Source: Pirellula staleyi DSM 6068 (lineage in GTDB: Bacteria > Planctomycetota > Planctomycetia > Pirellulales > Pirellulaceae). From it: 32,000 nucleotides of DNA. Under the pieces are notes generated by a model, which ran no database searches, was not told where the DNA came from, and worked only from the letters and a program-made list of their open reading frames with translations. Both the position numbers and the translations under genes were made by a program. Of this stretch, positions 3,623 to 29,483 are shown piece after piece. Location: the NCBI GenBank assembly GCA_000025185.1, contig CP001848.1, positions 3,510,001 to 3,542,000 of the forward strand. Reading direction: 5' to 3'. Positions within the stretch are counted from its first letter, which is position 1. Each line of letters opens with the position of its first letter.

Positions 3623-4546
3623 CTAGCCCCCACGCAGTTGCTGTTCGATTACAAAAAATTCGTACTTACCTGCAGAGCCTCGCACGCCAAACACCGTCTT
3701 TAGTACATCCTTGATCCGGCGGCCGTTGAGCTGCTGATTCTCGAGGACGAGCAGTTTTTGATAAGTCGCTTGGCTATAAAACTGAAATACAATTTTGCCA
3801 CTAGGGTCGGCACCGGCCCGGCGGGCCAGCTCGCGATCAGCGTCGCGAAGCTGGCTGCTGCGATGCAAAAACCGAAGTCGTTTTTCATCTTTTGGATCAC
3901 CGACCCGCCGCAGTGGCTTCGCGGTCGAGAGCTTCGAAACGTACTCAACATTCGGACTCCCACCACCGGCGACTCCTAGCTCGACTTCAAAGTAATCGAG
4001 TTGCTGGGCGTAAGTGGCTAGACTCGACGCATTGAGACGCACTTCCCAGCGTTCCCAGGCGGGGATGCCGTCGGAAGTTCCGGGACCACCGGGACCGATT
4101 CCACGGCCATCTCCTGTGCCGCTCCCTTCGCCGCGACCTTGCGACGTGGTGCTGTCGAGCGAATCGAGCTGCATCTCTTCCGACGCAACGATGGTCGAAA
4201 TCGACTCGAGCGACTCCGTGAGAGGAGGCTCGACGTTCTGCTGAAATTCTTCGGGTGCTGGCTCGTCGAGGGGCTGTTCGCCTCCCGTGAAGTTGTCGCC
4301 ACTACCACCACCACCAACATCTTCCACCAGTGTCACTTCGAGCGCTGGTGGGTTGAACATCAGGCGACTCGAAAGCCACACGATAAACAGCAGCAGCGTG
4401 GCGGTTCCGAGCAGCACAAGTACGGCAACGAGCATCCCAGCCACCTGGTCGAAGCTCGAGACCTGCAGCTGCGGTTGCGGCGCGCTGGCGCGGTCCGGTC
4501 GATGACCGGAAGGTGCAGAAGAAGTTGACGCCTCGGGACTACTCAT
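3623..4546 (-). CDS. Hypothetical single-pass membrane protein: N-terminal TM anchor, acidic/Gly-rich linker, and a C-terminal globular domain of about 150 aa
   Basis: The ORF is open to 4621, but that start is a TTG. The ATG at 4546 gives MSSPEASTSS... with the TM helix VAGMLVAVLVLLGTATLLLFIVWL. The linker includes GGGGSGDNFTGGEQPLDEPAPEE and GRGEGSGTGDGRGIGPGGPG. I recognise no family motif. The gene sits in the position usually held by TonB, just upstream of exbB. Confidence 0.65.
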   Translation of the reverse strand: MSSPEASTSSAPSGHRPDRASAPQPQLQVSSFDQVAGMLVAVLVLLGTATLLLFIVWLSSRLMFNPPALEVTLVEDVGGGGSGDNFTGGEQPLDEPAPEEFQQNVEPPLTESLESISTIVASEEMQLDSLDSTTSQGRGEGSGTGDGRGIGPGGPGTSDGIPAWERWEVRLNASSLATYAQQLDYFEVELGVAGGGSPNVEYVSKLSTAKPLRRVGDPKDEKRLRFLHRSSQLRDADRELARRAGADPSGKIVFQFYSQATYQKLLVLENQQLNGRRIKDVLKTVFGVRGSAGKYEFFVIEQQLRGG

Positions 4547-4676
4547 TACAACGTGTTTGAAAGAGTGGGGTTCGAAAAGAGTGCCTGTAACTTTAGTCAA
4601 GGAGCTAGTTGCCGGAGCCAAGCTCGATGGCCAGACGCTGTCATCCGTCTATGCTTGTTGCGAACTACGCTGCTTG

Positions 4677-6455
4677 CTAATCGAGAAGTTCAGCATCGGG
4701 GCGTACCGACAAATACCAGGCTTTCCAAGCCGCGATAGCCGCGTCGATTTCACCTCGCGACGGCGTTTCGCTGAGTCCCACTCCTTGAAACTTTCGGCTG
4801 AGTATCCGCAGTGCTTGATCAGCCTCTTTCACAATACGAATGTCGGGATCGGTGAGTGCGTAGAGCAAAACAGGCACGCTGCTGTAGTCGCGTGCTTGCC
4901 CCAGTGCTTTCACCGCGATGATGCGCGACTGATACGAGCCAGCTCGCACCAGTTCTTTGAGCTTCGTGATCTGACTCGATCGCTTGGTGATATCGCTTTC
5001 GAGTGTAAGCGAAGTCGGCAGATCGCTGATGCTACTTAATATAGGATTCTCGGGATCTTCGATGATTCGCAACAACTCGTCGACGCTGCCCGTGAGTGGG
5101 GTGGTCTCGAGTTTGCCATCTTTCTCGCGCAGATCGCTCGTCGCAGGGGGGAGACCCATACCACCGAGCAGCGTCCCTTCGCCTAGGTCGCCAACCACTT
5201 TCGAAATCGATTTGCTGGCCGAACGAGTGAGAAACAGCACCGACAAACAGGTGGCGACGATCGCATTGTCTTCACCATGCCAGCTGCCATCTTTTTGCTG
5301 GGTCTTACGCAGATGTTCAAAGCCATCGTCGTACCAGCGTGCCGTTTTCGAGCGAGTTCCCTCGGTCAACTCGCGGAAACTTTGATAACGCTCGAGGCCG
5401 TAGAGATAGTAGTGATTCCACCGCGGTGAATTCACCGTGTAGTTCTGCTGAAACCAGCGATTCCCGTCGGCCATGCCGCGACGAACCCACTCGGCTTGAA
5501 TCACTTTCGAAATACCATCGCCACGCTTGCGAGTATTGGGTGGCTCGATCACCTTCAGCTTCGAGGAAACACCGGTCTCTTCTTTGTTGTTTTGTGGGTC
5601 GGTGATCTTCAGCATGTCGGCTGTGATGTAGAGCGAGCCAAGTCCGGCTGCGGTGAGCGAGGGACTTGTTTCCGCTCCATGCTGACGACGCTGCATCGTC
5701 CCATCGTCGGAGACGTGGTAGACAAAACTTCCGCGCACATCTTGTGTGCGAATGAGCCAGCCACAAGCACGTTCGATCACCTCGACTGGAATTTCGAACC
5801 CGCTGTTTTTGGCCATCCACAAACTCAAAATGGCGTACTGCGTTTGTGAGGTATCACCAGCCGGGTTGTGGAGGTAGGTCCAGGCCCCTTCTTTCATCTG
5901 ACGAGAATAGAGTGCCTTGAGAAGTGTTTCGATTTTGTCGCGATACTGCTCGGGATCGAGCTCACACATCAGGATGATCGCCAGCCCAATTGTGTAGATT
6001 TCCGAACTACTGGTGATCTGTGCGTTGCTTAATAAGAGGTCGATGGCAACCAGTCCATCTTTGACTTTGGGATGCGTTTTTTCGCGCCCCGCTTTAAGGA
6101 GCGTTAGCCCCATCAGAATACGACCGCCGTAGCGAGCTTCGGTCTGCTGTTCGAGATAGCCGACCGCGCGGTCGATGACCTCGACAACTTCTTTGCTCTC
6201 GGGAGTGACGGCATGCGCTGCTGGAGGTGTCGCAAAACAGCACGCGAGGATCGCCACGATCGAACACGCCGAGAGCCATCGCCCCCGATAGGACAAACGA
6301 CTTGAGGGGCGGCAGGGGTGAACCGACCAGGAATCTGGTTGGTGGAGGTTGCTGATCACGGCAAATCGTTTCCTTGAAGCACGGGGCAGGAGTCGATACC
6401 GCAGGCCTGCAGCGCTCGGTGTACCAGAAGGGGTAACCGCCACGCTCGAGCCCAA
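4677..6455 (-). CDS. Secreted prenyltransferase/squalene-oxidase-repeat (terpenoid-cyclase-like alpha/alpha toroid) protein with C-terminal HEAT repeats
   Basis: QW-type motifs are present: SRQMKEGAWTY, RTQDVRGSFVY and KTQQKDGSWHG. The C-terminal HEAT/PBS-lyase-like repeat reads IIAVKALGQARDYSSVPVLLYALTDPDIRIVKEADQALRIL. The signal peptide is RWLSACSIVAILACCFATPPAAHA. The start is uncertain: 6455 is a TTG, and an in-frame TTG at 6296 would give MSYRGRWLSAC... right at the signal peptide. Confidence 0.75.
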   Translation of the reverse strand: MGSSVAVTPSGTPSAAGLRYRLLPRASRKRFAVISNLHQPDSWSVHPCRPSSRLSYRGRWLSACSIVAILACCFATPPAAHAVTPESKEVVEVIDRAVGYLEQQTEARYGGRILMGLTLLKAGREKTHPKVKDGLVAIDLLLSNAQITSSSEIYTIGLAIILMCELDPEQYRDKIETLLKALYSRQMKEGAWTYLHNPAGDTSQTQYAILSLWMAKNSGFEIPVEVIERACGWLIRTQDVRGSFVYHVSDDGTMQRRQHGAETSPSLTAAGLGSLYITADMLKITDPQNNKEETGVSSKLKVIEPPNTRKRGDGISKVIQAEWVRRGMADGNRWFQQNYTVNSPRWNHYYLYGLERYQSFRELTEGTRSKTARWYDDGFEHLRKTQQKDGSWHGEDNAIVATCLSVLFLTRSASKSISKVVGDLGEGTLLGGMGLPPATSDLREKDGKLETTPLTGSVDELLRIIEDPENPILSSISDLPTSLTLESDITKRSSQITKLKELVRAGSYQSRIIAVKALGQARDYSSVPVLLYALTDPDIRIVKEADQALRILSRKFQGVGLSETPSRGEIDAAIAAWKAWYLSVRPDAELLD

Positions 6456-6879
6456 AGGCTAGCACGGGTTCCGATCGATAGGAGAAGAGACTCGGTAGGC
6501 TACTGCCCGTGACACGCGATGTCAAGCATTTGCTCTGGCGCAAGTGATTATGCCGAAAGTAGTTGCCCTACATGAGCGAGGCTTTGGGCAGGGCTGCTAG
6601 TGGACCCGTTCACCCGTTCGCAGGTCGTCAGCCGACGCGCGATTCACCGAAGGGAGGGGTGGCGATGGTCGTCGTGGGAGAATTTCGCCACATTTAAGAA
6701 AAGTTGCTTGTCGGTCGAGCGCGAGCGTCGTCATATTAAGTAGTCACACTTGCGGGTGAACCATTGGGGCCCCTCGAGGTACTTAATGACGCGGAGGGGC
6801 GTGAGGCGAGATTCGACTCGGCCCTCTGCATGGAACCTGTTGGTGGTAGCCGAGTTACTGGCGACTGCTGGAGACGATC

Positions 6880-9186
6880 ATGAGCAAGCGAAACTGGCGT
6901 GCATGGGCAAAACTAACCGGAACCTGGGCCCTAGCTGGGGCCGTGGTGACGGGGCAACTGGTCGGTTCGGCTCTGCCGCACGTGATGGCTCAGGAAGGTG
7001 CTGCGGCGGGCGAAGGTGCTCCAGCCGCTGGACCATCGAGCGGCCCTTCGGCCCTCGGCATTCGTCAACAGCGAGTGGAGCAACTGGTCGAGGAGCTCTC
7101 GCGGAAGTTCACCAGTCTGGCGATTTCGCTCCAAGAGAAAGAGCCCGAACGAGCCGAACGCCTGAAACAAACACTCGAAGCATCGAAGAAAATGCTCCTG
7201 CAAGAGCGGACCGGCGACATCACCAAACTGCTCGACGCTGCCCAACTCGGCAATGCTACGGAAAATCAGCAGCAACTGCTGAGCGACATTCGCAAACTGA
7301 TTTCGCTGCTGCTCGACGATCCCTCCGACAAAGAAAAAGATCGCGAGGAATTCGAGCGACTGAGCGAATGGAAAAAGCAGATCGAATCGATCATCGAGTC
7401 CGAGCGTGGCGAAAAGCGCGAGTCCGATCGCGTTTCGAACAAAGAACAAACGCTTGCTGCCATGGCGGCCCGCATTGCCGCTGTCGAAGCACTTTTAGAA
7501 AAACAAAAAGCGATCCTCGAGGCGACCGAATCGGTCCGCGCGGAAGGAATTCAAAAGCTCGGCCCCATCGCGGGGCAGCAAGCCGATACCCGAGAGCAAG
7601 CCGAAGCCATTTTGAAGGATATTGCCAAAGAAGCTGGCGATCAGGTTCCGGGCGAAGGTTCCGGAGAAGCTCCCAGTGGCTCCAAACCTGGAGAAGGCAA
7701 ACCTGGGGAAGGTAAACCTGGAGAAGGTAAACCTGGAGAAGGTAAACCTGGAGAAGGTAAACCTGGAGAAGGTAAACCTGGAGAAGGTAAACCTGGAGAA
7801 GGTAAACCTGGAGAAGGTAAGCCCGGAGAAGGTAAGCCCGGAGAAGGTAAGCCCGGAGAAGGTAAGCCCGGAGAAGGTAAGCCCGGAGAAGGTAAGCCCG
7901 GAGAAGGTTCGTCCGAAGGGGCGAGTGGCGGAGAGTCGGGAGGTCAGCAGGGGGGCCAGTCGGGCGAATCGGGAAGTCCCAAGCGTCCTAAGGAAGCGGG
8001 TGAACGTCCTCTGGAAGAGGCGGTAAAGAATCAACAAGCAGCTGAGAAAAACCTCGGTGAAGGAAAAGGCAAAGCAGCCACCCAAGACGAACAGTCGGCT
8101 GTCGACAACCTGCAGCGAGCGCTTGCGGAACTCAAGAAGGAAGAGAATCGCATCGCGTCGCTTCCTCCCGAAGCTTTTGAAAAGATGGCGCAAAAACAAG
8201 ACGACATCGCTGGCCAAACGGCCAAGCTCGACGACCAAATGAAAAAGGCTGGCGAGCAAGGAGGAGGGGAGCAAGGTGGCGGTGAGTCGGGCGGGGGAGA
8301 ATCTGGCGGCGGCCAGTCGGGTGGAGGCCAATCGGGCGGTGGTGAGCAAGCTGGCGGCAAGCAGCAACCGGGACAGCAGAAGGTCCAGCAAGCTCAGCAG
8401 CAGATGAAGCAAGCTTCGGGCGATCTCCGCAAGCAACAGCCGAAGGATGCTTCGCGTCAGCAGGGGAAGGCGATTCAAACGCTCGAAGAAGCGCTCCAAG
8501 AAATTGAAGAGCGTTTGGCTCAGCTGCGCGAAGAGACCCAAATCGAAAAGCTGGCGAAGCTGGAAGCTCGTTTCCGCGAGATTTTGGCCCGTCAGGAGGT
8601 TTCATCAGCCGACACGATCGGTTTTGAGACCAAGCGACTTGAACAAGGTGGTGAACTGAAGCGAACTGATCGGTTGGCTTTGGGTAAGGTGGCAGTGGAA
8701 GAGCGTGCTTTGGCGGAATTATCGCAGCAAACGCTCGACATCATTCTCGACGATGGCAGCAGCGTGGTGTTCCCGGATGTGGTTGCCCAGCTGCGCGACG
8801 ATTTGCTCGGGGTAGCGCAGCTGACCGACAGCAAACGAACCGATGCTTACACCCAGTCGCTACAAAAAGAGATCGAGCTGACGCTCGCCGAACTCATCGA
8901 AGCACTCCAAAAAGCGCAAGAGCAAAAGGAGAGTGAAGAGGGAGGGGGCGGCGGAGGAGGAGGTGGCGGCGGTGGTGAAGAACCACTTTTGCCAGGCTCT
9001 GCTGAGCTGAAACTGTTGCGCTCGGCTCAAATGCGTGTGAATCGCCGTACACAGTCGCTCGACACCGCCCGCGATCCCAAGGGGGAACTCCCCGACGATC
9101 TCAAGAGCCAAGTGCAGCAGATTTCGAACCGACAATCCGAAATCGGCGACATGACGATTCGAATTCTCGAGCGAGCATCGCAGTAG
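6880..9186 (+). CDS. Secreted 768-aa coiled-coil protein rich in Glu/Lys/Gln, with (GEGKP)14, (GGGxS)6 and Gly12 tracts; function unknown
   Basis: ATG start. Signal-peptide-like N-terminus WAKLTGTWALAGAVVTGQLVGSALPHVMAQE. Long heptad-like helical stretches are present, for example LLSDIRKLISLLL and IEERLAQLREETQIEKLAKLEARFREIL. Three Gly-rich tracts interrupt them. The C-terminal motif is LLPGSAELKLLRSAQMRVNRRTQSLD. Confidence 0.85.
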   Translation: MSKRNWRAWAKLTGTWALAGAVVTGQLVGSALPHVMAQEGAAAGEGAPAAGPSSGPSALGIRQQRVEQLVEELSRKFTSLAISLQEKEPERAERLKQTLEASKKMLLQERTGDITKLLDAAQLGNATENQQQLLSDIRKLISLLLDDPSDKEKDREEFERLSEWKKQIESIIESERGEKRESDRVSNKEQTLAAMAARIAAVEALLEKQKAILEATESVRAEGIQKLGPIAGQQADTREQAEAILKDIAKEAGDQVPGEGSGEAPSGSKPGEGKPGEGKPGEGKPGEGKPGEGKPGEGKPGEGKPGEGKPGEGKPGEGKPGEGKPGEGKPGEGKPGEGKPGEGSSEGASGGESGGQQGGQSGESGSPKRPKEAGERPLEEAVKNQQAAEKNLGEGKGKAATQDEQSAVDNLQRALAELKKEENRIASLPPEAFEKMAQKQDDIAGQTAKLDDQMKKAGEQGGGEQGGGESGGGESGGGQSGGGQSGGGEQAGGKQQPGQQKVQQAQQQMKQASGDLRKQQPKDASRQQGKAIQTLEEALQEIEERLAQLREETQIEKLAKLEARFREILARQEVSSADTIGFETKRLEQGGELKRTDRLALGKVAVEERALAELSQQTLDIILDDGSSVVFPDVVAQLRDDLLGVAQLTDSKRTDAYTQSLQKEIELTLAELIEALQKAQEQKESEEGGGGGGGGGGGGEEPLLPGSAELKLLRSAQMRVNRRTQSLDTARDPKGELPDDLKSQVQQISNRQSEIGDMTIRILERASQ
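7690..7899 (+). repeat. Perfect in-frame 15-bp tandem repeat, 14 units, encoding (GEGKP)14. It splits into two synonymous sub-blocks.
   Basis: Units of ggagaaggtaaacct fill 7690-7809. That is 8 units; the first has ggc and the second has ggg. Units of ggagaaggtaagccc fill 7810-7899 (6 units). A degenerate unit ggagaaggttcgtcc follows at 7900. Confidence 0.97.
8260..8349 (+). repeat. Degenerate 15-bp (pentapeptide) repeat, 6 units, encoding GGG[E/Q][S/Q]
   Basis: Read in frame: ggaggaggggagcaa, ggtggcggtgagtcg, ggcgggggagaatct, ggcggcggccagtcg, ggtggaggccaatcg, ggcggtggtgagcaa. A separate Gly12 run is encoded at 8941-8976. Confidence 0.85.
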
Positions 9187-9267
9187 CGATCGTCGTCGCA
9201 AGTCGTCCAGGCATTGATTCGTGGGTGATGGTTCGGTCGTAGTAGGTCTGCAGAAGGAAATGGTGCG

Positions 9268-10425
9268 ATGAGTAAGCGAAGTTTCGCAAAACCGACGTTA
9301 GGCTCCTTCGATTCGCTATTCGCGGGGCGATTTGTCCCGAAGCTCATCGCAGCCAGTGCCCTGATGGTGATGGGGATTTTGACGCTCCGGGCTACGGCCG
9401 AAGATCCGGTTCCTGCGAAACCAACGGCCAGTGAAGCGGTGATCGACAGTTTGTCGGCCTCGCTTTCGGCGAGCAAAACGTTGCCAGCCGATAGCGTGAA
9501 GGTGGCAGTGGAATTGCTGACTGCTCTCCGGAGTGATCCGCAAGCCCAGCCCATCGCTGTGACGGAAGCGCTGCGCGAAGTTTATCCGTCGTACAAAGAA
9601 GCTTTGGTGCTGCTGGGTGATGAAAACATTCCGGCGGCCATCGACAGCCTCACGGCTCTCAAAGCTTCCGAAGATCCGTATCTCGCCGCCGACGCCAGTT
9701 ACTATTTGGCTCGCGCTTATCTGCTGAGCGAACGATTTGAAGAGTCGATGCCACTCTTGAGCGAACTGCAAACCAAATATCAATCGCAAAGCGTTCGCGC
9801 GGGGGAGGCCTTGTTCCTCCAAGGTGTCGCGGAAGCTCAGATGCTCAATCGGCCCGCTGCGCTAGAGGCGCTTACCAAGTTTCTCGAGCAACACAAAGAT
9901 GCTCCCGAGCGGATGCGTGTGGGGGCGATGCGTCAGCTGGAAGAACTGAAGTTGCTCGAAGATGGCACGCTCAGCGACGTGCAGATGCGCATGAACTACA
10001 GCCGCCGCAAACTGGCCCTTGAAGACACCGGCGAAGTGACCCGCGAACAGCAAGCGAAGATTGTCGACATCCTGGCCAAGCTCATCAAAGAAGCGGAAGA
10101 GCGAGAATCGCAGGGAAAGGGTAGCGGCAAAGGAAAAGGCAAAGGGAAGGGAAAAGGCCAAGGCAAGGGTGGCGAAGGGGAAAGTGAAGGCCAAGGCGAG
10201 GGGCAAGGAGAAGGCCAAGGTGGACAATCGGGTGGCGGCAGCAAGGGAATCGATTCCGACGCCGTGAAGCGTTTGACGCGCGGTGGTCCTCAAAGCCCGT
10301 GGAGCCAACTCCGCGACAAGGAACGCGATCCCGTCTTCAGCGCGATCAAAGAAAAGTTTCCTGCTCGCTATCAGCAGTTGATTGAACAATACTATAAGAG
10401 CTTCCAGGACGACTCCGAAGGTTAG
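9268..10425 (+). CDS. Secreted or membrane-anchored TPR-repeat protein with a (GK)n/(GEGQ)n low-complexity tract (385 aa)
   Basis: ATG start with AAGGA upstream. Hydrophobic N-terminus LIAASALMVMGILTLRATA. TPR-like helices include YYLARAYLLSERFEESMPLLSELQTKY and ALFLQGVAEAQMLNRPAALEALTKFLEQH. The Gly tract is at 10114-10248. The C-terminal motif is FPARYQQLIEQYYKSF. Confidence 0.8.
   Translation: MSKRSFAKPTLGSFDSLFAGRFVPKLIAASALMVMGILTLRATAEDPVPAKPTASEAVIDSLSASLSASKTLPADSVKVAVELLTALRSDPQAQPIAVTEALREVYPSYKEALVLLGDENIPAAIDSLTALKASEDPYLAADASYYLARAYLLSERFEESMPLLSELQTKYQSQSVRAGEALFLQGVAEAQMLNRPAALEALTKFLEQHKDAPERMRVGAMRQLEELKLLEDGTLSDVQMRMNYSRRKLALEDTGEVTREQQAKIVDILAKLIKEAEERESQGKGSGKGKGKGKGKGQGKGGEGESEGQGEGQGEGQGGQSGGGSKGIDSDAVKRLTRGGPQSPWSQLRDKERDPVFSAIKEKFPARYQQLIEQYYKSFQDDSEG
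10114..10248 (+). repeat. Low-complexity coding tract GKGSGKGKGKGKGKGQGKGGEGESEGQGEGQGEGQGGQSGGGSKG, with 6-nt and 12-nt periodicity
   Basis: Read in frame from 10114: gga aag ggt agc ggc aaa gga aaa ggc aaa ggg aag ..., then ggc caa ggc gag ggg caa gga gaa ggc caa. Confidence 0.85.
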
Positions 10426-10469
10426 TGGCTTGCACCGGCGAGCGACCTCTTTGAACATAGGCAGCGACG

Positions 10470-11798
10470 ATGAGTGGGCAACAAGCCGTGGCGACGCATT
10501 TGAGTCCCCGATTGTCGGGTGTTTTCCAGTCGAACATCGCTGCGAAACTTTCCGGATCGCCAGCTCGTCGTGTTATCGTCTCCGTGGTGGCGACCTTCAG
10601 TTTTGTGGCTACGTGTATCGGCGCTGCGAGCCATCTCCTTGCACAAGAGCCTGCATCCACCAAACCGCTGCTGAAGTTTGAAGTGCGGCTGATTTCCGGC
10701 GAGAAAATTGCCCCCGCGACACTCGAGATTGCAGCGGGACAAATCAAAAATGTTCCTCTCGCATCAGGGAGTAGGGATCTGCCGCTCGACGAGCTTTCGC
10801 GGATCACGATCAGTTCCTTGCGCGAGCCGACCAAAGCGTCGGGATCAGTTCAGGTTTATCTTCGGAATCAAGGCTTCCTCGCCGCGGAGTCGGTCACGAT
10901 TTCCGACGACGAGTTCCATCTCAAAACTGCTTTTGCCGAGTCGCTTGATCTGACGATCGATTTGGTGCGCGGAGTGGTTCTCAAGCCTGAAGCGGCCGAC
11001 GTCGTGCAGAAACTGATCAAAACCCCTTCGGCCGACAACGATCGGCTGATTGTGGCTGTCGATGACAAACTCGAAACGCTCGAAGGGCTGATCGTGAGTG
11101 TCTCGGCGACGGAAGTGAAATTCGAAATCGATGGGATGGAGAAGTCGCTCCCGTTCGACCGTCTCGCTGGAATCGTTGTGGCGCAGGCTCGTGCCGACGA
11201 TGAACCTGCTCGCCTCAAGCTCAAGCTCACAAGTGGCGAACTCGTGGCTGGCGAGTCGATGGAAGTATCGGAAGGCCTCGCCAGCTTGACGATCAGCGGC
11301 GATGCAAAACTCGAAATGCCGCTCGCTTCGATCAAAGAGATCGCCTACCGCTCATCGCAACTCGAATACCTTTCAGACCTGACGCCGAGCACAGTGTTCG
11401 AGCAGCCGGTGGTGACGCTCAAGCGTCCCTATCAAGTGGATCGAAGCGTCTCGGGAAAGCCGCTCAACATTGGGGGCACAATCTACGAGAAGGGAATCGG
11501 CGTGCATGCGATCAGCCGACTGACTTATCAAATCGAACCCGGTTTTGATCAGTTTGTGGTCGATGTGGGTCTCGATGCGGCGGCTGCCGGCAAGGGGAAT
11601 TGCATTTTTGTCGTGCTGGGGGATGGCCAGCAACTAGCGAGTGAAACGGTGCAAGGCAAAGATGCAGCACGCACGCTTCGTGTACCGATTCGCGGCGTTC
11701 GTGAGCTCACGATCGCCGTGGAGGCTGGGGAAGATCTCGATCTGGCCGATCACGCCAACTGGTGCGAAGCTCGGCTGCTGAAAGTGAAGTCCCCATAA
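10470..11798 (+). CDS. Secreted protein with four N-terminal beta-rich internal repeats and a C-terminal NPCBM (glycosyl-hydrolase-98-type carbohydrate-binding module-like) domain
   Basis: ATG start. Signal-like segment VIVSVVATFSFVATCIGAASHLLAQE. The C-terminus reads KGIGVHAISRLTYQIEPGFDQFVVDVGLDAAAAGKGNCIFVVLGDGQQL...VRELTIAVEAGEDLDLADHANWCEARLL. This matches the NPCBM pattern GIGVHA...F...VG.D....G...F.V..DG...L.L.V..........DHA.W..A.L. Confidence 0.8.
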   Translation: MSGQQAVATHLSPRLSGVFQSNIAAKLSGSPARRVIVSVVATFSFVATCIGAASHLLAQEPASTKPLLKFEVRLISGEKIAPATLEIAAGQIKNVPLASGSRDLPLDELSRITISSLREPTKASGSVQVYLRNQGFLAAESVTISDDEFHLKTAFAESLDLTIDLVRGVVLKPEAADVVQKLIKTPSADNDRLIVAVDDKLETLEGLIVSVSATEVKFEIDGMEKSLPFDRLAGIVVAQARADDEPARLKLKLTSGELVAGESMEVSEGLASLTISGDAKLEMPLASIKEIAYRSSQLEYLSDLTPSTVFEQPVVTLKRPYQVDRSVSGKPLNIGGTIYEKGIGVHAISRLTYQIEPGFDQFVVDVGLDAAAAGKGNCIFVVLGDGQQLASETVQGKDAARTLRVPIRGVRELTIAVEAGEDLDLADHANWCEARLLKVKSP

Positions 11799-11865
11799 GC
11801 CGTCGCGACTGTTCCCACTGAAGTTTTTCTACGGAATACCACAACCTCACTTACCCCAATCAGTC

Positions 11866-13935
11866 ATGCAATCTCTCTACGTTGATTGTTGGCGGAAGTC
11901 GATAGCGGTGATCGCTGTTGCGTTCACTCTCTATCCTTCAATCGTGCTGGCTCAGTTTGGCCTGGATGACCTGAAGCTCCCCACGAAGAAGCCGGAAGTC
12001 ATCAAAGCACCTGTTACTGCCGCTCCACTATCGCGCGACGAACTGCTGGCGGTCAAGCAAGCGGAAGCAGCCCGTATTGCAGCGATCCAAGGAATTTACG
12101 GCAGCGTGGTTGCGATTTACGGCAACGATCGTGGCGGTGGTGGTTCCGGTGTGCTTTACGATGCGCATGGTTTTGCGATCACGAATCATCACGTCGTCGC
12201 AGCCGCCGGTGTCGAAGGTTGGGCAGGACTCGCTGATGGCAAACTCTATCGTTGGCGTCTTTTGGGGAGCGATCCGGGTGGCGACGTCGCCATCATTCAG
12301 CTCCTCGGTCGCAACGATTTCCCTGTCGCGCCGCTGGGCAACAGCGATCAGGTGCGCGTGGGGCAGTGGGCGATGGCGATGGGAAATCCTTTCGTTTTAG
12401 CCGAAGATCAGCGTCCCACAGTTACTCTCGGCATCGTGAGTGGTGTGAAGCGTTTTCAGCCGGGCGAAGGAATGAATCAACTCGTCTATGGCAACTGCAT
12501 TCAAGTCGATAGTTCGATCAACCCCGGCAACTCCGGTGGTCCCCTCTTCAACCTCCTCGGGCAAGTGATCGGAATCAATGGACGCGGCAGTTTCGAAGAA
12601 CGTGGTCGTGTGAACGTGGGGCTCGGATATGCCATCTCGTCGAATCAAGTGAAGCTATTCTTGCCCGATCTGCTGGCCACCAAGATTGCTCAGCATGGAA
12701 CGCTCGATGCGATTTTTGGCAACCGCGAGCAGGGGGTGGTTTGCTTTACGATGAACCTCGATTCGCCGATCGCGCGGAAAGGGCTCGCGCTCGGAGATCG
12801 CATTATTTCGCTCGAAGGAGAGCGAATTAACGACGCCAATCAGCTGACCAATTTGCTGTCGACCTACCCCGCTGGTTGGCCTGTCACGGTGGTGTTCGAT
12901 CACGAAGGGACCGAGAAGAAAGCGACGGTTCGCCTCACTCCACTGCCGTATGAGCCAATCGTCAAAACTCCTTCACCGATGCCTCAGCCGAAGGATGAAG
13001 AAAAACCAGCCCCCGGCGAAGGTGAAAAGACATCGTCATCGCGTCTCACCAGAGCGCTGCTAGATGAACCATCGAGCGAGCCCAAGCCCGCTGAAGAGCC
13101 CGCCCCGAAGTCCGACGACAAGCCGTCCGAAGAAAAGAAACCGGAAGAGCCTCAAGCGCCGTCCGATCCCAAACCCAAGATTGTGGAAGTCCCGCGTCAG
13201 CCTCCGATACCTTTGAGCAATGCGGGTAAGCCTCGGGCACCGCAGATTGGTAGCGAAGTTGCCAAGCTGCTGCTGCAGCGACTGCGAGATGCCGCAACTT
13301 CGAGCCCGACTTCAGAGCCCTGGGAAGCGATTCGCCTGGAGTCGGAGATTCTCGAGAATGGAGAAGTGGTCGGACGCGAGACGATGCTCATCGCTCGCGA
13401 TGGTCGATCGATGGTCACTTACACACGTGGTCTGGTGAGTGTCACCATCGCCTTTGATGGCAAGGTCTACCGCATGCAAAGCGGCGCGGAAGCTCCCCGC
13501 GAAGTGAGCTTTTCTCGAGCCTTTCGTGATTCACACTTTGCTTCGTCGGTGGCGCTGGCCACGCTCGTCAACACCTCCAATGATCCCCGTTTCGAAAAGG
13601 TCGCCCACGAAGGTTCCGATAAGGCCGCAGCTACGCTCGCGCACCGCCTGAGCATCGCCGCCGACGATAGCGAGTCGCTCTACTTCTACCTCAAGGTGCT
13701 GGCAGACAACGGCACTCCCACCAGTGGACTGCTCAAGACCAGTGTCGGTACGAGCGATGAAGAGCCGATTCCTTCGATGCTTTACCGAGACGAAAAGGCC
13801 ATTGCATCGGTTCGGCTTCCGCACGAGCGGGTTCTCGTACGAGGACTCGATGAGCAAGTGCTGGCCACGATTCGTACCACTAGTGCCGAAACTGTTGCGA
13901 AGGTCGAGGAGGGTTCGTTCGATGTCACTCCTTAG
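11866..13935 (+). CDS. HtrA/DegP-like (S1C) trypsin-fold serine protease with a PDZ domain, a Pro/Glu/Lys linker and a C-terminal domain of about 230 aa with unknown function. The catalytic triad is intact.
   Basis: Signal peptide IAVIAVAFTLYPSIVLAQ. His motif GSGVLYDAHGFAITNHHVV, with His at 12190-12192. Asp motif GGDVAIIQL, with Asp at 12283-12285. Ser motif NPGNSGGPLFN, with Ser at 12532-12534. PDZ-like segment GLALGDRIISLEGERINDANQL. Confidence 0.9.
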   Translation: MQSLYVDCWRKSIAVIAVAFTLYPSIVLAQFGLDDLKLPTKKPEVIKAPVTAAPLSRDELLAVKQAEAARIAAIQGIYGSVVAIYGNDRGGGGSGVLYDAHGFAITNHHVVAAAGVEGWAGLADGKLYRWRLLGSDPGGDVAIIQLLGRNDFPVAPLGNSDQVRVGQWAMAMGNPFVLAEDQRPTVTLGIVSGVKRFQPGEGMNQLVYGNCIQVDSSINPGNSGGPLFNLLGQVIGINGRGSFEERGRVNVGLGYAISSNQVKLFLPDLLATKIAQHGTLDAIFGNREQGVVCFTMNLDSPIARKGLALGDRIISLEGERINDANQLTNLLSTYPAGWPVTVVFDHEGTEKKATVRLTPLPYEPIVKTPSPMPQPKDEEKPAPGEGEKTSSSRLTRALLDEPSSEPKPAEEPAPKSDDKPSEEKKPEEPQAPSDPKPKIVEVPRQPPIPLSNAGKPRAPQIGSEVAKLLLQRLRDAATSSPTSEPWEAIRLESEILENGEVVGRETMLIARDGRSMVTYTRGLVSVTIAFDGKVYRMQSGAEAPREVSFSRAFRDSHFASSVALATLVNTSNDPRFEKVAHEGSDKAAATLAHRLSIAADDSESLYFYLKVLADNGTPTSGLLKTSVGTSDEEPIPSMLYRDEKAIASVRLPHERVLVRGLDEQVLATIRTTSAETVAKVEEGSFDVTP

Positions 13936-14959
13936 TCGAAAACTGGCGACTTCACTCTTTGTGCTAGGTGCGATCGCAAGTTTCGCAGGGATATCCCCCA
14001 TGTCTCTCGTGGCTGCTGATGCGGCGGCTGAAGTGGGAGAGGAATTCGCCGCTGGGGTCGCTTTTGCTCAGCAGCGAACGGTCAAAATTTATGGTGGTGG
14101 CATTGGCAGAACTCCAGGCTATGCCAGCGGAATCATTGTTTCTTCGGAAGGGGAAATTGTGACCGCCAGTGGCGCGCTGCTCGCCGCGGATAGCTTGCGA
14201 GTGACGCTTCCCAATGGGCAAACTTTTCCCGCTCAAGTACTCCGCCGTAGTTTGCCACTCCAGCTCGTGATGCTCAAAATCGATGCCTCCACACCCGAGT
14301 ATTTCGATTTGAAAGCAGCCTCGACAATCGAAACCGGGGATTGGGTGCTCGCCGTCAGTAATGCCTTCAAAGTGGCTGAAGGCGCGGAACCCTTGAGTGT
14401 GAATATCGGCGTCCTTTCGCTACGCACGAAGCTGACAGCTCGTCGCGGCTATGTCGATTTTCCGTACGAAGATGAAGTGTTTTTGATCGATGCCATCACT
14501 AGTAATCCAGGAGCAGCCGGTGGAGCTGTCGTTGATGTCGAGGGGAAAGTCGTCGGCATGATTGGCAAGGTGATCGAGAGCAAGAACACCGGAACCCGTC
14601 TGAATTATGCTGTGCCTGCCGATCTGATTGCAGCCTTCGCAAGTGGACAAGAGACATCGCCTGCCGCCGATCCGGCACCTTCCTCGAACGAAAAAGGTGA
14701 GCTGGGAATCCGCCTCTTTGCACTCGGGGGTCGTAAGGGACCGGCTTACGTCGATCGAGTTCTTCCGGGATCTCCCGCTGCTGAAGCGGGTGTGAAAGTC
14801 GATGATCTTGTGGTGGCGATTAATGGCGATGTGGTGCGCGATAGCTCCGATTTTCAGAAGCTCATCAGTGGCATCGCGGCGGGTAGCGAAGTGACGATTG
14901 ACGTGAAGCGTCGCAATGAACTCTTGCAGCTGCGAGTTACTGCAGCCCCGATGAGGTAG
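13922..14959 (+). CDS. HtrA-like trypsin-fold + PDZ protein lacking all three catalytic residues (predicted pseudoprotease, 345 aa)
   Basis: The likely start is the ATG at 13922 (MSLLSRKLATSLFVLGAIASFAGISPMSLVAADA, signal-like). It overlaps the upstream stop by 14 nt. The track ORF start at 13724 lies inside the upstream gene. Fold motifs are kept: ASGIIVSSEGEIVT, GDWVLAVSN, VDVEGKVVGMIG. The triad positions are changed: TASGAL in place of TNxHVV (Gly at 14171-14173), QLVMLKI in place of DxAxxx (Gln at 14261-14263), and GAAGGA in place of GNSGGP (Ala at 14516-14518). PDZ-like segment GSPAAEAGVKVDDLVVAINGDVV. Confidence 0.85.
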   Translation: MSLLSRKLATSLFVLGAIASFAGISPMSLVAADAAAEVGEEFAAGVAFAQQRTVKIYGGGIGRTPGYASGIIVSSEGEIVTASGALLAADSLRVTLPNGQTFPAQVLRRSLPLQLVMLKIDASTPEYFDLKAASTIETGDWVLAVSNAFKVAEGAEPLSVNIGVLSLRTKLTARRGYVDFPYEDEVFLIDAITSNPGAAGGAVVDVEGKVVGMIGKVIESKNTGTRLNYAVPADLIAAFASGQETSPAADPAPSSNEKGELGIRLFALGGRKGPAYVDRVLPGSPAAEAGVKVDDLVVAINGDVVRDSSDFQKLISGIAAGSEVTIDVKRRNELLQLRVTAAPMR

Positions 14960-14966
14960 TCTTTCG

Positions 14967-16241
14967 ATGCTACGGTATACGATCTTCGTCGTTGGTCTGC
15001 TGGGAGCGTGCATCGCGAACGCCGATGAACCGGCTCCTGCTGCAAGTTCGACTCCTGCAACTGCCTCTACGGAAGCAGCACCTGCGCCGAGCCTGATCAC
15101 ACGCGGCGTGCTTTTGGCACCGAAGGCGTTTCGCCAGGTGGCGGCGAGCATTCGCCCGTCGCTGGTGATGATCGAGAGCTTTGGTGGTCTCAATGCTGGT
15201 GAAGGTGTTTCGAACCTCGCCGCCGATGGACCAACCACTGGACTCATCATTTCGTCGGATGGTTACATCATCACGAGCACGTTCAATTTTTTGCGCAAGC
15301 CGCCGATCATCACGATCACACTGGCGGATGGCAGACGTAAAGTGGCAACACTGCTTGGGCGCGACGAAACTCGTAAGCTCTGTTTGCTCAAAATCAACGA
15401 TGTTTCGGATCTTCCAGTTCCAACTTTTGCTCCGCGCGAGGAAGTTCGCGTGGGTCAGTGGGCTGTCGCCGTGGGATTTGGTTTCGGTGACAAAGAGCCA
15501 TCGCTTACTGCCGGTATTATTTCGGCTGAGAGTCGCATTTCAGGTCGCGCCTTACAGACCGACGCGAATCTGAGTCCCGCGAACTATGGTGGCCCACTGC
15601 TCGACATCGATGGCCGTTTGCTCGGCATTTGTGTCCCTCTTGCGCCGGGTGCTAAAGATGTGGCTGCTGGTGCTGAGTGGTACGATTCGGGAATTGGATT
15701 TGCCGTGCCGCTGGGTGAGATCGCTCCCATCATCGAAGCGATGAAAGCAGGCAAGACGCTGGTTCCCGGTTACCTTGGCATCCAGCCTGCTCCCTCGGGC
15801 AATCCACCGTCGGGTGCCGAAGTCGGTAGTGTGAAAGAGAAGTCTCCTGCAGAAGCGGCAGGACTGAAGGCAGGGGATAAACTCCTCAAGATTGGCGACA
15901 TTGAAGTGCTTGATGTTGCTCACTTGTCGACGGTGGTCGGACGCTACGTGGCGGGTGATAAGATTACGATTCTCGTCCGCCGAGGCGAACAAGAGCTCAC
16001 GATCGAAGCTGTGCTGGGTGAGGTTCCGCCACCACCTCCTCCGATGCCGATGCCTCAGCCGGGTGAAGCGGCAAAACCTGCTGAAGGGAAGCCAGCCGAG
16101 GGGAAACCTGCTGAGGAAAAGCCTGCCGGAGAGAAACCCGCGGAAGCTCCAGCGGGCGAAGAGGCACCAGCGGAGAAAAAGCCAGTGGAGGCTCCTCCGA
16201 CAGAAGAAGCCCCCACTGAGAATTCGGACTCGCCGAAATAG
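14967..16241 (+). CDS. HtrA-like trypsin-fold + PDZ protein lacking all three catalytic residues, with a C-terminal Pro/Ala/Glu/Lys-rich tail (predicted pseudoprotease, 424 aa)
   Basis: ATG start with signal peptide MLRYTIFVVGLLGACIANA. Fold motifs are kept: TTGLIISSDGYIIT, GQWAVAVG, LDIDGRLLGI. The triad positions are changed: TSTFNF (Phe at 15282-15284 in place of His), KLCLLKI (Lys at 15375-15377 in place of Asp), and ANYGGP (Tyr at 15585-15587 in place of Ser). PDZ-like segment KSPAEAAGLKAGDKLLKIGDIEV. Confidence 0.85.
   Translation: MLRYTIFVVGLLGACIANADEPAPAASSTPATASTEAAPAPSLITRGVLLAPKAFRQVAASIRPSLVMIESFGGLNAGEGVSNLAADGPTTGLIISSDGYIITSTFNFLRKPPIITITLADGRRKVATLLGRDETRKLCLLKINDVSDLPVPTFAPREEVRVGQWAVAVGFGFGDKEPSLTAGIISAESRISGRALQTDANLSPANYGGPLLDIDGRLLGICVPLAPGAKDVAAGAEWYDSGIGFAVPLGEIAPIIEAMKAGKTLVPGYLGIQPAPSGNPPSGAEVGSVKEKSPAEAAGLKAGDKLLKIGDIEVLDVAHLSTVVGRYVAGDKITILVRRGEQELTIEAVLGEVPPPPPPMPMPQPGEAAKPAEGKPAEGKPAEEKPAGEKPAEAPAGEEAPAEKKPVEAPPTEEAPTENSDSPK
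16074..16148 (+). repeat. Degenerate 15-bp (pentapeptide) repeat, 5 units, encoding KPAEG-like units
   Basis: Read in frame: aaacctgctgaaggg, aagccagccgagggg, aaacctgctgaggaa, aagcctgccggagag, aaacccgcggaagct. Confidence 0.7.
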
Positions 16242-16374
16242 CCGCTCTGCCGCTCGCTTGTGGGTGTGATTATCGCGCCAGCTGTTCCGATTAGTTCGAC
16301 TTTTTCTTTAGCGGGCGACCTGTTTCTTGGCCCGCCCGTCCGTCCCCTTGATTGCATGGGGACCCGTATCGATT

Positions 16375-16407
16375 AAACTCGCTCGTGCTTTGTCTTGTGC
16401 GAGTTTT
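16375..16407 (+). terminator. Possible weak intrinsic terminator downstream of the six-gene cluster
   Basis: Inverted repeat AAACTCGC (16375-16382) and GCGAGTTT (16399-16406) with a 16-nt loop. The 3' arm runs into TTTT. It lies 134 nt after the stop at 16241 and upstream of pyc. The long loop and short GC stem make it weak. Confidence 0.3.
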
Positions 16408-16529
16408 CGGCGGAAATGCCCAGCGAAATCGGATCGGCGACAGCGTCGCGACTCGCCTGTTTCATCATCACCTCTCCACGCCGCTGGTCGAGTCAGCTTG
16501 CTGCTCTCCCTGCGCGATCTAGCGATACC

Positions 16530-19500
16530 ATGAAAAAGATTACCAAGCTGCTCGTTGCCAACCGCAGCGAGATTGCGATTCGTGTATTTCGCAGTGCCCA
16601 TGAACTCGGTATTCGTACGGTGGCGATCTATGCCTACGAAGATCGATTCGCTCTGCATCGCTTCAAGGCAGACGAAGCGTATCAAGTGGGTGGCACAGGG
16701 GAACCGATTCGTGCGTATCTGAATATCGCCGCGATCATCGCGATTGCTCAGCAGCACGGTGTCGACGCGATTCATCCGGGCTATGGTTTTCTTTCGGAGA
16801 ATCCCGATCTTGCGCGGGCTTGCGAAAAGGCCGGGATCACCTTTGTCGGCCCGCATGTCGACGCACTCGTCAACCTGGGAGATAAGACCTTTGCTCGCAA
16901 CATTGCGATGAAGGCCGATGTTCCTGTGCTGGGGGGAAGCGATTCGATCACCTCTCCCGAGCAGGGATTGAAACTCGCTGCGAAACTGGGTTACCCCATC
17001 ATTCTGAAAGCGGCTAAAGGTGGTGGTGGTCGCGGCATGCGAGTGGTGGCGAGCGAACGCGATTTTGTGACGCAGCTTGAGCAAGCCCAGCGAGAATCGC
17101 TCTCGGCGTTTGGCAGCCCCGATGTGTTCATCGAAAAATTCATCACTCGCGCTAGTCACATTGAAGTGCAGTTGCTCGGCGACAAGCATGGCAATCTGGT
17201 GCATTTGTGGGAACGAGATTGCTCGGTTCAGCGGCGGCATCAGAAGGTGGTCGAAATCGCTCCTGCGCCGAATCTGCCAGGCGATGTGCGGCAGGCATTG
17301 TGCGATGCTGCGATTCGGATCGGCAAAGCCGTGAAGTATGAAAACGCAGGAACGGTCGAGTTTCTTGTCGATCGTTTATCGGGACAGTTCTATTTCATTG
17401 AAGTGAACCCACGCATTCAGGTCGAACATACGGTGACCGAAGAGGTGACCGGTATCGACATCGTCAAGAGTCAGATTCTGATCGCACAAGGAACACCGCT
17501 GGCTGATCCCGAGATTGGTCTCGCCTCGCAAGAGGGAGTGAAGACCAACGGTTTTGCGATGCAGTGCCGCGTGACGACCGAAGATCCTACGAACAATTTC
17601 ATGCCCGATTATGGGCGGATTTCGCACTACCGTTCAGCAGCTGGGCTCGGTATTCGTCTGGATGCCGGGACAGCATTTTCCGGTGCGACAGTGAATCCGT
17701 TCTACGATTCGTTGCTGGTGAAGGTGAGCGCTCGTGGTCGACGTTTCATCGATGCCGCACATCGTATGGAACGCTGCCTGCAAGAGTTTCGCATTCGAGG
17801 TGTGAAGACCAATATCCCCTTTTTGATTCAGCTCATCACTCACCCGGCGTTCTTGGCGGGTGAATGCACCACACGTTTCATCGACGAAACTCCCGATCTG
17901 TTTGAGCTTCCGCGCCGGCGAAATCGCGCGACACGTTTGCTGAGCTATCTCGGCGAGATTGCCGTGAATGGCAATCCACTCGTGAAGGGTCTCCCCAAAG
18001 CGATGCGGCGCAGTCCTGCGCCGGTTCCAAAATTCGACAACACCGCAGCCGTTCCCGAGGGGAGTCGTGATCGACTCAAAGAACTGGGACCGGAGAAGTT
18101 TGCGCAGTGGATTCTCAAGCAAAAAGCATTGCTGCTGACCGACACGACGTTCCGCGACGCACACCAGTCGCTGCTGGCAACGCGGTTTCGAACGAAGGAT
18201 CTGCTGAATGTTGCCGAGGCCTATGCGCATTTAGCGAGTGACCTGTTTTCGCTGGAAATGTGGGGGGGAGCGACGTTCGATACGTCGATGCGTTTCCTCA
18301 AAGAATGCCCCTGGCAGCGTCTCGCCGATATGCGCGAGAAAGTTCCCAACATCTGTTTTCAGATGCTGTTTCGCGCTTCGAATGCAGTGGGCTACTCGAG
18401 CTATCCGGACAATATCGTGCGCGAGTTCTGTAGTGAAGCGACGGCAGCGGGGATGGATATTTTCCGCATCTTCGACGCGCTCAATTTCCTCCCCAACATG
18501 CGTGTGGCGATGGAAGCAGTGCAGAAGGCAGGTGGTGTTTGCGAGCCTGCGATCTGCTACACCGGCGATATCCTGAATCCAGCGCGATCGAAGTACGACC
18601 TGAAGTACTACGTCGAACTTGCGAAAGAGCTTGAGAAGTCGGGCGCACATATTCTGGCCATCAAAGACATGGCCGGTTTGTGCAAGCCGTACGCCGCTGA
18701 GCTTCTCGTGAAAACGCTGAAGCAAGAGATCGGTATACCGATTCATTTCCACACGCATGACACGGCGGGAATGCAAGCCGCGTCGATTCTGAAGGCGGCA
18801 GAAGTGAAGCTAGACATCGCCGATGGCGCGATGGCATCGATGTCGGGAGGGACAAGTCAGCCGAATCTCAACGCGATCATCGAGGGGCTCCGCTTCGGCA
18901 AGCGTGATACGAATTTATCAGCCGAGCATTTCAGTCAGATTTCCGACTATTGGCAATCGGTGCGCGAGTTCTACACACCCTTCGACGGTGTGATGCTTCC
19001 AGCGACGGCGGAACTTTACAGCCACGAAATGCCGGGTGGTCAGTACACCAATCTCTATCAGCAGGCTCGTGCACTGGGACTCTCGGAGCGATGGCCAGAG
19101 ATCTGCAAAATGTACGCGGAAGTGAATCAACTCCTGGGTGATATTGTGAAAGTGACGCCGACCTCGAAAGCGGTGGGCGATCTCGCTTTGTTTATGGTCG
19201 CGAATTCACTTTCGAGCGAAGACGTGGTGTATGGCGATCGTGAACTCGCGTTTCCTGATTCGGTGATCGATCTGGTGAGTGGCATGATGGGGCATCCACC
19301 AGGTGGTTTTCCCAAAGCAGTGCAGAAGCGAATTCTGCGCGACAAGAAACCTGTGAAAGGACGCCCTGGAGCGAGCCTTCCACCAGCCGATTTCACGGCA
19401 GCTTCGGAGAAAGTGCAGAAGCTGATCGGACGCGAGCCGAGTATGCGTGATGTGCTGTCGTACCTCTTGTACCCGAAAGTTTATGAGGAATTTGCAGCAC

Positions 19501-19970: not shown

Positions 19971-20018
19971 TCGTTGATTGGTTCGCTCTCGCGGGGAGCA
20001 ATCGGGTAGCTGAATTCG

Positions 20019-23741: not shown

Positions 23742-23790
23742 CGGATCAGGCTTTGGATAAAGGCGTCGCGAAGTTGAACTGGTGGCAAGT

Positions 23791-26268: not shown

Positions 26269-26456
26269 GCGTGGAGTTTCCTTCCCACGTGGGAGCAAAG
26301 TCGCCAAGGAGCGATCGATCAGCGCGAGCCTCGGAAGGGCCGCTCCATGATCCATCGGAACATACTTGTGCAAACTTTGATGGTATCCCGCCCGCTGCGC
26401 ACCGTCAACGAAAACTGACCCGAAATGGGCCAGTCGGAAGGTGTGTTATAGGGGCC

Positions 26457-26489: not shown

Positions 26490-26527
26490 CACGCGCGCCC
26501 CTCGCTGGAAGTCCTTTAACCTCGCCC

Positions 26528-29477: not shown

Positions 29478-29483
29478 CGACGG

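Follow-up and report, generated by a model that had tools for sequence, protein, structure and literature searches.

A conserved planctomycete gene cluster for predicted periplasmic scaffold, lectin-like and HtrA-type proteins

Gene layout and export signals

The DNA analysed here, called the window throughout, is a stretch of 32,000 nucleotides of Pirellula staleyi DSM 6068 (contig CP001848.1, positions 3,510,001 to 3,542,000), and it contains a cluster of six consecutive genes encoding a putative coiled-coil protein (CC768), a TPR protein (TPR385), an NPCBM protein (NPCBM442) and three HtrA-type proteins (HtrA1, HtrA2 and HtrA3). These genes belong to a widely conserved planctomycete module, in which one HtrA protein retains a complete catalytic triad and the other two do not. 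An earlier note on this DNA had described the cluster as operon-like and had suggested a complex of exported proteins. In the coordinates of the window, the genes are as follows.

6880..9186, + strand: CC768, 768 residues, from the list of open reading frames (ORFs)
9268..10425, + strand: TPR385, 385 residues, from the ORF list
10470..11798, + strand: NPCBM442, 442 residues, from the ORF list
11866..13935, + strand: HtrA1, 689 residues, from the ORF list
13922..14959, + strand: HtrA2, 345 residues, from an ATG within a longer ORF that starts with GTG at 13724
14967..16241, + strand: HtrA3, 424 residues, from the ORF list

The distances between consecutive coding sequences are 81, 44, 67, -14 and 7 nt, which match the ORF list exactly and are those given by the earlier note; HtrA1 and HtrA2 overlap by 14 nt, and a gap of 7 nt separates HtrA2 from HtrA3. 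No terminator-like site on the + strand is found in any of the five junctions in a promoter and terminator scan of 6300-16600, a scan that is uninformative in that its promoter-like sites are at chance level.

A reading of the sequences reveals a single hydrophobic segment in each of the six proteins, which is N-terminal in every case, and no further membrane segment. The hydrophobic stretch is followed by an AxA-like site in all six (in gene order, VMA/QE, ATA/ED, LLA/QE, VLA/QF, LVA/AD and ANA/DE). Because each protein combines one N-terminal hydrophobic stretch with an AxA-type site and has no other membrane segment, all six look Sec-exported and would be periplasmic, in line with the signal-peptide-like N-termini proposed previously. 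Among the domain assignments proposed from the sequence, Pfam upholds NPCBM in NPCBM442 and Trypsin_2 together with PDZ in all three HtrA proteins; TPR_16 matches TPR385 below the threshold (26.9 bits, under the cut-off of 32.7).

Low-complexity tracts of Gly, Lys, Glu, Pro and Gln are present in four of the six proteins, and a regular tandem repeat lies within the first.

7684-8420: tract in CC768
10126-10220: tract in TPR385
about 12960-13210: tract in the HtrA1 linker
16000-16241: tract in the HtrA3 tail
7684..7908, + strand: tandem repeat encoding the (GEGKP)n spacer of CC768, period 15 bp, 15.0 copies, 97% matches, score 352 (Tandem Repeats Finder)

The position of these tracts is kept among orthologues, and their sequence is not. 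The tracts also account for a strong purine skew (AT and GC) at 7001-9000. The Gly/Lys/Glu/Pro tracts that had been noted in the 768-residue protein are thus real, with 15 copies of a 15-bp repeat encoding GEGKP. Slippage at this repeat could alter the copy number and hence the length of a tether. Pro/Glu/Lys/Gly tracts of a similar kind are known in the periplasm-spanning proteins TonB and TolA.

Protease, lectin and scaffold-like proteins of the cluster

The protease and first PDZ domains of HtrA1, HtrA2 and HtrA3 align to the solved structures of DegQ, DegP and DegS with E values of 1e-20 to 1e-29; the Trypsin_2 scores are 107, 68 and 92 bits, respectively, and both Trypsin_2 and PDZ_2 exceed their cut-offs in all three. 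To locate the catalytic positions, 103 HtrA ORFs of related loci were aligned with MAFFT (individual loci are cited by L numbers). HtrA1 contains the triad H109/D140/S223 within the motifs TNHHV, GGDVAII and GNSGGP, and 39 of 41 HtrA1 orthologues have H-D-S. The corresponding positions of HtrA2 are occupied by G, Q and A, as seen in the alignment to the solved DegP-like protease 22kg, and its orthologues never have His or Asp at the triad positions, where G/S/T and Q/L are present instead. In HtrA3, aligned to DegQ (3pv2), the residues are F106/K137/Y207. This F-K-Y combination is present in 25 of 34 species-representative orthologues. Without exception, the 80 metagenome relatives carry F/Y in place of the His and Y/F in place of the Ser. 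The former Asp position varies among these 80 relatives (K, M, R or Q; loci L089-L168), with K in 33 and M in 26, which may mark two clades or functional states.

Sequence identities are 36-82% for the pseudoproteases vs 39-74% for the active paralogue. Because conservation is thus similar with and without an intact triad, HtrA2 and HtrA3 are, as judged from these alignments, maintained and ancient pseudoenzymes with the HtrA fold and not decaying genes. The prediction of one live and two dead HtrA proteases is thus confirmed at the level of the triad residues.

HtrA1 extends beyond its PDZ domain (residues 285-357) through the Pro/Glu/Lys linker into a C-terminal domain of 240 residues (approximately 450-689), and HtrA3 ends in a Pro/Ala/Glu/Lys tail. 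An exhaustive HMMER search of 1.84 billion proteins with the HtrA1 C-terminal domain yields 58 representatives, six of them at E <= 1e-30. The matches occupy the C-terminus of proteins of approximately 560-670 residues, with many others being short fragments, and provide no new context; the domain is, on this evidence, restricted to this lineage. A word-index search with the same domain (window 13183-13932) gave zero matches vs the 58 obtained by HMMER, and a word-index negative does not amount to absence.

A comparison with the DegP, DegQ and DegS proteases (MEROPS S1C) reveals both shared and distinct features. HtrA1 shares the full triad and the GNSGGP motif with them, and in each of the three proteins the alignment to them spans the protease domain and the first PDZ domain. 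However, the scores are under the curated equivalog cut-offs, two of the three proteins are catalytically dead, HtrA1 carries the extra 240-residue domain, and the three genes form a fixed trio. The MamE/MamO pair resembles the trio in that a degenerate-site HtrA protein is encoded with a catalytic one, and MamO activates MamE-dependent proteolysis in a non-catalytic manner (PMC4794232). There is, however, no close sequence relationship, since the NCBIfam models of MamE and MamO give 27-100 bits vs cut-offs of 800; two distinct pseudoproteases are present here, all three proteins are soluble exported proteins with one PDZ domain each, and there is no magnetosome context.

The NPCBM domain of NPCBM442 occupies residues 299-436 and scores 121.6 bits in Pfam vs a cut-off of 23.9. 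It is preceded by a signal or anchor helix (residues 31-54) and four small beta modules (68-116, 127-170, 191-236 and 249-293). In an AlphaFold2 model with a mean predicted local distance difference test score (pLDDT) of 85.7, the C-terminal domain superimposes in Foldseek on the structure 2vmg, the CBM51 module of a Clostridium perfringens enzyme of glycoside hydrolase family 95 (GH95), with a target-normalised TM-score of 0.85, a root-mean-square deviation of 1.9 A, an E value of 4e-11 and 28% identity. The NPCBM hallmark motifs KGIGVH and DLADHANW are invariant in the full-length alignment of the NPCBM442 family. According to the model, the C-terminal domain is a CBM51/NPCBM lectin fold, and glycan binding is predicted. 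The fold and the hallmark motifs are thus those of the CBM51/NPCBM modules of glycoside hydrolases, whereas the module of NPCBM442 has no attached enzyme, follows four beta modules and is encoded with scaffold and protease genes.

In TPR385, the TPR region lies at approximately residues 109-230, and TPR families are matched in 13 of 31 orthologues. The family profile gives weak matches to BamD/YfiO (3qky, E 1e-4) and CpoB, in addition to a weak match to the YbgF model. A Gly/Lys/Gln/Glu tract at approximately 285-320 is followed by a highly conserved C-terminal motif (...FPxRYRxLVEQYYxSL) with W345, R353, P365, Y368 and Y375.

CC768 is rich in E, K, Q, G, A and L, and its conserved blocks (approximately 59-255, 369-452 and 515-768) are separated by the Gly/Lys/Glu/Pro tracts. 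The most conserved element in the orthologue alignment is the C-terminal PLLPxSAELKLLRxxQxRVNRRT, which directly follows a poly-Gly run. Its composition and weak matches to designed helical proteins weakly suggest a helical or coiled-coil protein. In the public gene call (L085 5343-7556), CC768 is 737 residues long because its start is placed 31 codons after the ATG at 6880, which removes the predicted signal peptide; the 768-residue start is preferred because the orthologues conserve both M1, which is invariant, and the AxAQE site.

Profile comparisons connect CC768 to the DUF4175 family (PF13779), which is matched by 12 of 29 CC768 orthologues with a best E value of 1.3e-10; the orthologue of L034 reaches 26.5 bits vs a cut-off of 27.3. 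A 1284-residue protein of L053 is above this cut-off (34 bits vs 27.3), and the CC768 family profile aligns to its residues 771-1126 over 350 columns in hhalign (probability 98.6%, E 9.5e-16). In most related loci, a protein of approximately 750 residues without a Pfam family, referred to as U748, is encoded directly ahead of the cluster, and its profile aligns to residues 6-682 of the same L053 protein (probability 100%, E 2.7e-48). Because each aligns to a different half of the L053 protein, U748 and CC768 would be consecutive halves of one ancestral protein. The alternative that they are paralogues is rejected, as the hhalign probability for the pair is 3%. Sequence searches for solved relatives of CC768 and U748 return only designed helical proteins and a chance KefC match.

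From these profile alignments, CC768 is read as the detached C-terminal half of a DUF4175-type protein, with U748 as the membrane-anchored N-terminal half. DUF4175 would thus be split into two genes in Planctomycetota and Verrucomicrobiota, with the C-terminal half having gained its own signal peptide. As a DUF4175 protein, CC768 misses the Pfam gathering score, is homologous by profile comparison and lacks the full-length architecture, and is thus a fragment-type member.

Conservation and genomic neighbourhood

A search seeded with NPCBM442 and restricted to one genome per species provides 62 loci with a full-length relative, from metagenome-assembled genomes (MAGs) labelled Pirellulaceae, Planctomycetaceae, Mariniblastus, Phycisphaerae and Verrucomicrobiales. 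The synteny denominators are the loci with enough flanking sequence, and the genes were counted via tblastn, since naive ORF calling in these high-GC loci gave spurious antisense ORFs. TPR385 is upstream of NPCBM in 53 of 58 loci, and CC768 and TPR385 together in 41 of 49. The HtrA trio is complete downstream of NPCBM in 30 of 45 loci, and 14 of the 45 contain no HtrA gene. The gene order is invariant across the NPCBM-seeded loci.

The reciprocal analysis, in which metagenome contigs were scanned with the HtrA3 alignment and the loci with enough upstream sequence were counted, yields HtrA2 upstream of HtrA3 in 56/60 and both HtrA1 and HtrA2 in 40/44. NPCBM accompanies HtrA1 and HtrA2 in 31/36 of these loci; with CC768 added the count is 19/23, and with U748 also added it is 16/23. 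In independent gene calls for L001, L002 and L003, consecutive HtrA genes either overlap, by 14 and 8 nt, or lie 2 to 10 nt apart. Pirellulales, Planctomycetales and Phycisphaerae all retain the adjacency of the clustered genes, with protein identities of 28-40%. The clustering of the six genes is far above chance, and they are a widely conserved planctomycete module. The HtrA trio is specific to Planctomycetota and is all-or-none. A lack of co-conservation in related genomes, which the earlier note had named as grounds against its reading, is clearly not what is found, since the synteny holds in both directions.

In most related loci, two further conserved genes on the same strand precede the cluster, the first encoding a VWA protein of approximately 840 residues (VWA842) and the second U748. 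VWA842, found in 26 loci, has an invariant DxSxS metal-ion-dependent adhesion site (MIDAS) motif, a GATase1-like region and a C-terminal anchor, and weakly matches the Leptospira BatA model. MoxR is present in L034, L037, L041, L044, L046 and L053, and DUF58 in L037 and L053; in Verrucomicrobiales, MoxR (AAA_3) follows NPCBM, and MoxR, DUF58 and a further VWA protein are close by in L037 and L053. Proteins of the PQQ-type beta-propeller and prenyltransferase-like toroid types also recur in related neighbourhoods. Because of the DUF4175 profile homology and the presence of VWA, U748, MoxR and DUF58 nearby in other genomes, the natural unit extends beyond these six genes, the first of which are part of a recognised, uncharacterised MoxR/VWA/DUF4175 neighbourhood. 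The earlier statement that no described pathway has this composition is therefore in need of revision where CC768 is concerned, and stands in that the composition as a whole is without description in the literature searched; this search found no account of the cluster, of a DUF4175 function or of the planctomycete HtrA trio.

The related loci share VWA proteins, DUF58, MoxR AAA_3 and a TPR protein with the Bat/MoxR-VWA clusters, in addition to the DUF4175 homology of CC768, which is C-terminal. In contrast to those clusters, DUF4175 is here distributed over two genes, of which only the C-terminal half is in the window, and a dedicated NPCBM/CBM51 protein is present together with, in Planctomycetota, three HtrA paralogues. 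To our knowledge, NPCBM and HtrA additions do not belong to the Bat operons described for Bacteroides or spirochaetes.

Two contigs from MAGs labelled Actinomycetes and Armatimonadota (L053 1620-8849 and L055 4137-10729) contain an unsplit DUF4175 gene of approximately 1290 residues, after which come genes for a toroid protein and an NPCBM-family protein, and no HtrA genes. Either the lectin link predates the split and reaches beyond the Planctomycetes-Verrucomicrobia-Chlamydiae (PVC) group, or these contigs are mis-binned.

Downstream of the cluster, a pyruvate carboxylase gene (window 16395-20819) is the direct neighbour in L001, L002, L005, L010, L011 and L018, and in seven loci overall; the gene for the biotin ligase BirA follows it in L001, L011 and L018. 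This linkage is probably retained synteny and not shared function. Farther downstream, the window contains the following genes.

21241-22263: downstream of birA, a MerR-type helix-turn-helix fused to B12-binding domains, an architecture that we take to be that of CarH-type regulators
22302-23741: DUF1501 protein, the first gene of a group at 22302-31844
23791-26373: PSCyt1/PSCyt2/PSD1 protein, paired with the preceding gene
26528-27709: unannotated ORF of 393 residues between the two DUF1501 pairs
27981-29477: DUF1501 protein of the second pair
29484-31844: PSCyt2/PSD1 protein of the second pair; both pairs are typical of planctomycetes

A proposed periplasmic assembly and its alternatives

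The reading that we favour, with a confidence slightly above even, is that the six genes code for a conserved module of Sec-exported, periplasmic proteins, with two sub-modules that meet at NPCBM442 and that would combine a scaffold, glycan binding and HtrA proteolysis. The first sub-module (CC768, TPR385 and NPCBM442) would be the distal part of a MoxR/DUF58/VWA (BatA-like)/DUF4175 envelope system in its Planctomycetota/Verrucomicrobiota form. CC768 may act as a long flexible periplasmic tether, with helical blocks and GEGKP, GGxS and poly-Gly spacers, that docks on U748 at the inner membrane. TPR385 would serve as an adaptor, and NPCBM442 may attach the assembly to envelope glycan through its four beta modules and the CBM51 lectin domain. 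The second sub-module would be the HtrA trio. Because HtrA proteases act as trimers, the trio is all-or-none, and the genes overlap or nearly abut, a hetero-oligomer is proposed that has only one active site and, in the simplest case, a 1:1:1 composition. The dead subunits and the PDZ domains may be sensors, activators or substrate holders, as MamO is for MamE. On this reading, envelope proteins would be subject to regulated proteolysis or quality control that is localised to a scaffold anchored to glycan.

A more specific version is put forward only tentatively: an obligate asymmetric HtrA heterotrimer, docked by the CBM51 lectin domain and the TPR protein onto a split DUF4175 tether, may constitute a periplasmic machine specific to Planctomycetota, and it would provide the first functional handle on MoxR/VWA/DUF4175 systems.

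Several points weigh against the favoured reading. The window copy of CC768 has no Pfam match, including DUF4175, at E <= 0.01, and none of the genes for U748, the VWA protein, MoxR or DUF58, through which the connection to the larger neighbourhood is drawn, lies within the 32-kb window. Verrucomicrobiales and some Planctomycetota have CC-TPR-NPCBM without HtrAs, and L037, L057 and L060 have NPCBM with the HtrA trio and no detectable CC homologue upstream (L057 retains TPR). Co-transcription, protein-protein contact and glycan binding are predictions. The heterotrimer is one of several assemblies, in that stacked or sequential homotrimers may fit the same data. Finally, deletion of all bat ORFs in a Leptospira strain leaves growth rate, morphology and tolerance of oxidative stress unchanged (PMC3557215); the Bat/MoxR-VWA class as a whole is uncharacterised, so the physiological role proposed above carries low confidence.

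The strongest alternative, to which we assign a low probability, is that the two sub-modules are independent, with CC-TPR-NPCBM working only with the MoxR/VWA/DUF4175 proteins and the HtrA trio representing general periplasmic quality control inherited alongside. The 14 of 45 NPCBM loci without HtrA genes are consistent with such independence, as are the three loci just cited with NPCBM and HtrAs and without a detectable CC gene upstream and five HtrA3-seeded loci without NPCBM upstream. Additionally, pyruvate carboxylase is a frequent neighbour without an obvious functional link, which indicates that synteny alone can persist. However, NPCBM and the HtrA trio remain together in the loci that lack CC (L037, L057 and L060), and the invariant order at 28-40% identity across the three orders and classes named above is much deeper than the pyruvate carboxylase linkage with its seven loci.

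A second alternative follows the earlier note in joining the six genes to the divergent operon upstream (ExbB, two ExbD proteins, TM332, PT592 and a PQQ protein) as one Ton/Tol-like envelope machine driven by the proton-motive force and controlled from a shared region. The features concerned are as follows.

6456..6879, no strand: divergent spacer of 424 bp between the cluster and the PT592/ExbB/ExbD operon
4677-6455, - strand: PT592, alpha/alpha-toroid and HEAT
3623-4621, - strand: TM332
2799-3446, - strand: ExbB, MotA_ExbB 84 bits
2229-2735, - strand: ExbD; 1225-2232, - strand: long ExbD (ExbD 69 and 71 bits for the two)
about 1-1140, - strand: TPR/PQQ beta-propeller membrane protein of 1260 residues, only its start in the window

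The adjacency with its 424-bp spacer is real in the genome of the window and in L002. Furthermore, in Verrucomicrobiales and a number of Planctomycetaceae the DUF4175 cluster includes proteins of the alpha/alpha-toroid and PQQ beta-propeller types, and TPR385 weakly resembles YbgF/CpoB and BamD. In contrast, the ExbB/ExbD operon is conserved independently, with an SBP_bac_5 gene after it (gene maps L085, L086 and L087), and in the L018 genome it lies at 1.40 Mb vs 2.20 Mb for the six-gene cluster on the same contig, approximately 0.8 Mb apart. Of the related loci with sufficient upstream sequence, L002 alone has ExbB/ExbD upstream, and in most loci other genes occupy this place. No promoter-like site is found in the spacer; the three sites in 6300-16600 are all outside it, with 2.6 expected by chance. 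Because the operon is independently conserved and 0.8 Mb away in the L018 genome, the shared spacer is a local accident of arrangement and not a conserved feature, and ExbB/ExbD is no conserved partner. The divergent Ton/Tol-like neighbour and the spacer described earlier thus exist, but their linkage to the cluster is not conserved. Since both settings include toroid and PQQ-propeller types of protein, a remote functional relationship is at most conceivable.

The layout of TM332 is TonB-like, with a transmembrane helix (56-88), a disordered Gly/Pro linker and an alpha/beta domain (188-329). Its AlphaFold2 model has a mean pLDDT of 68, with values of approximately 73-94 per 10-residue block in the C-terminal domain. 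A search with this model gives no fold match in the PDB, including the C-terminal domains of TonB and TolA (best E 0.16), and there is no Pfam match; TM332 is rejected as a TonB or TolA homologue, which also speaks against a joint machine. On balance, such a machine is improbable. The operon appears to be a separate energised envelope system, as yet uncharacterised, and its long ExbD carries a Cys-rich extension at the N-terminus. In the public gene calls, TM332 (270 residues), PT592 (560 residues) and both ExbD proteins are shorter than the longest ORFs.

The cluster could also be a polysaccharide-harvesting or surface-adhesion locus, in which NPCBM442 recognises algal or mucin-like glycans outside the cell and secreted substrates are processed by the proteases; this is rated as slightly less probable still. 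Solved CBM51/NPCBM modules sit on glycoside hydrolases and on a mucinase-type M60 metallopeptidase that act on host glycans, and planctomycetes reportedly take up polysaccharides (PMC5394234). However, the conserved genes of the cluster include no glycoside hydrolase, sulfatase, transporter or regulator, and the conserved partners are VWA, DUF4175 and MoxR proteins. The family is single-copy, and its annotated neighbours are housekeeping genes (pyruvate carboxylase and BirA; xylulokinase and FolD in Verrucomicrobiales). The cluster is highly unlikely to be a conflict or anti-phage system of the MoxR-vWA type in which NPCBM senses the invader: ternary conflict systems with MoxR and vWA, and sensors based on NPCBM, have been put forward (PMC7159879; PMC8195603), but those sensors are intracellular (PMC8195603) and all six proteins here carry export signals, PADLOC returns only generic trypsin-domain matches (two models of one family), and order and content are stable phylum-wide and not patchy, with no effector domain.

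Every building block of the cluster comes from a known family, and what is new here is the split DUF4175, its constant linkage to a CBM51 adaptor, and the hard-wired combination of an active HtrA with two dead ones that differ from each other. By Rosetta-stone reasoning, the splitting of DUF4175 into two genes predicts that CC768 has a physical partner. We know of no protein scaffold yet assigned to the enlarged planctomycete periplasm. The HtrA trio would represent hard-wired pseudoenzyme subunits in an oligomeric protease, and two different dead paralogues kept for the whole depth of the phylum, with conserved replacement residues (F...Y), would make a clean natural case of pseudoenzymes. 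Additionally, MoxR/DUF58/VWA/DUF4175 clusters are widespread, and the additions of a lectin and, in Planctomycetota, of a protease suggest what such systems act on.

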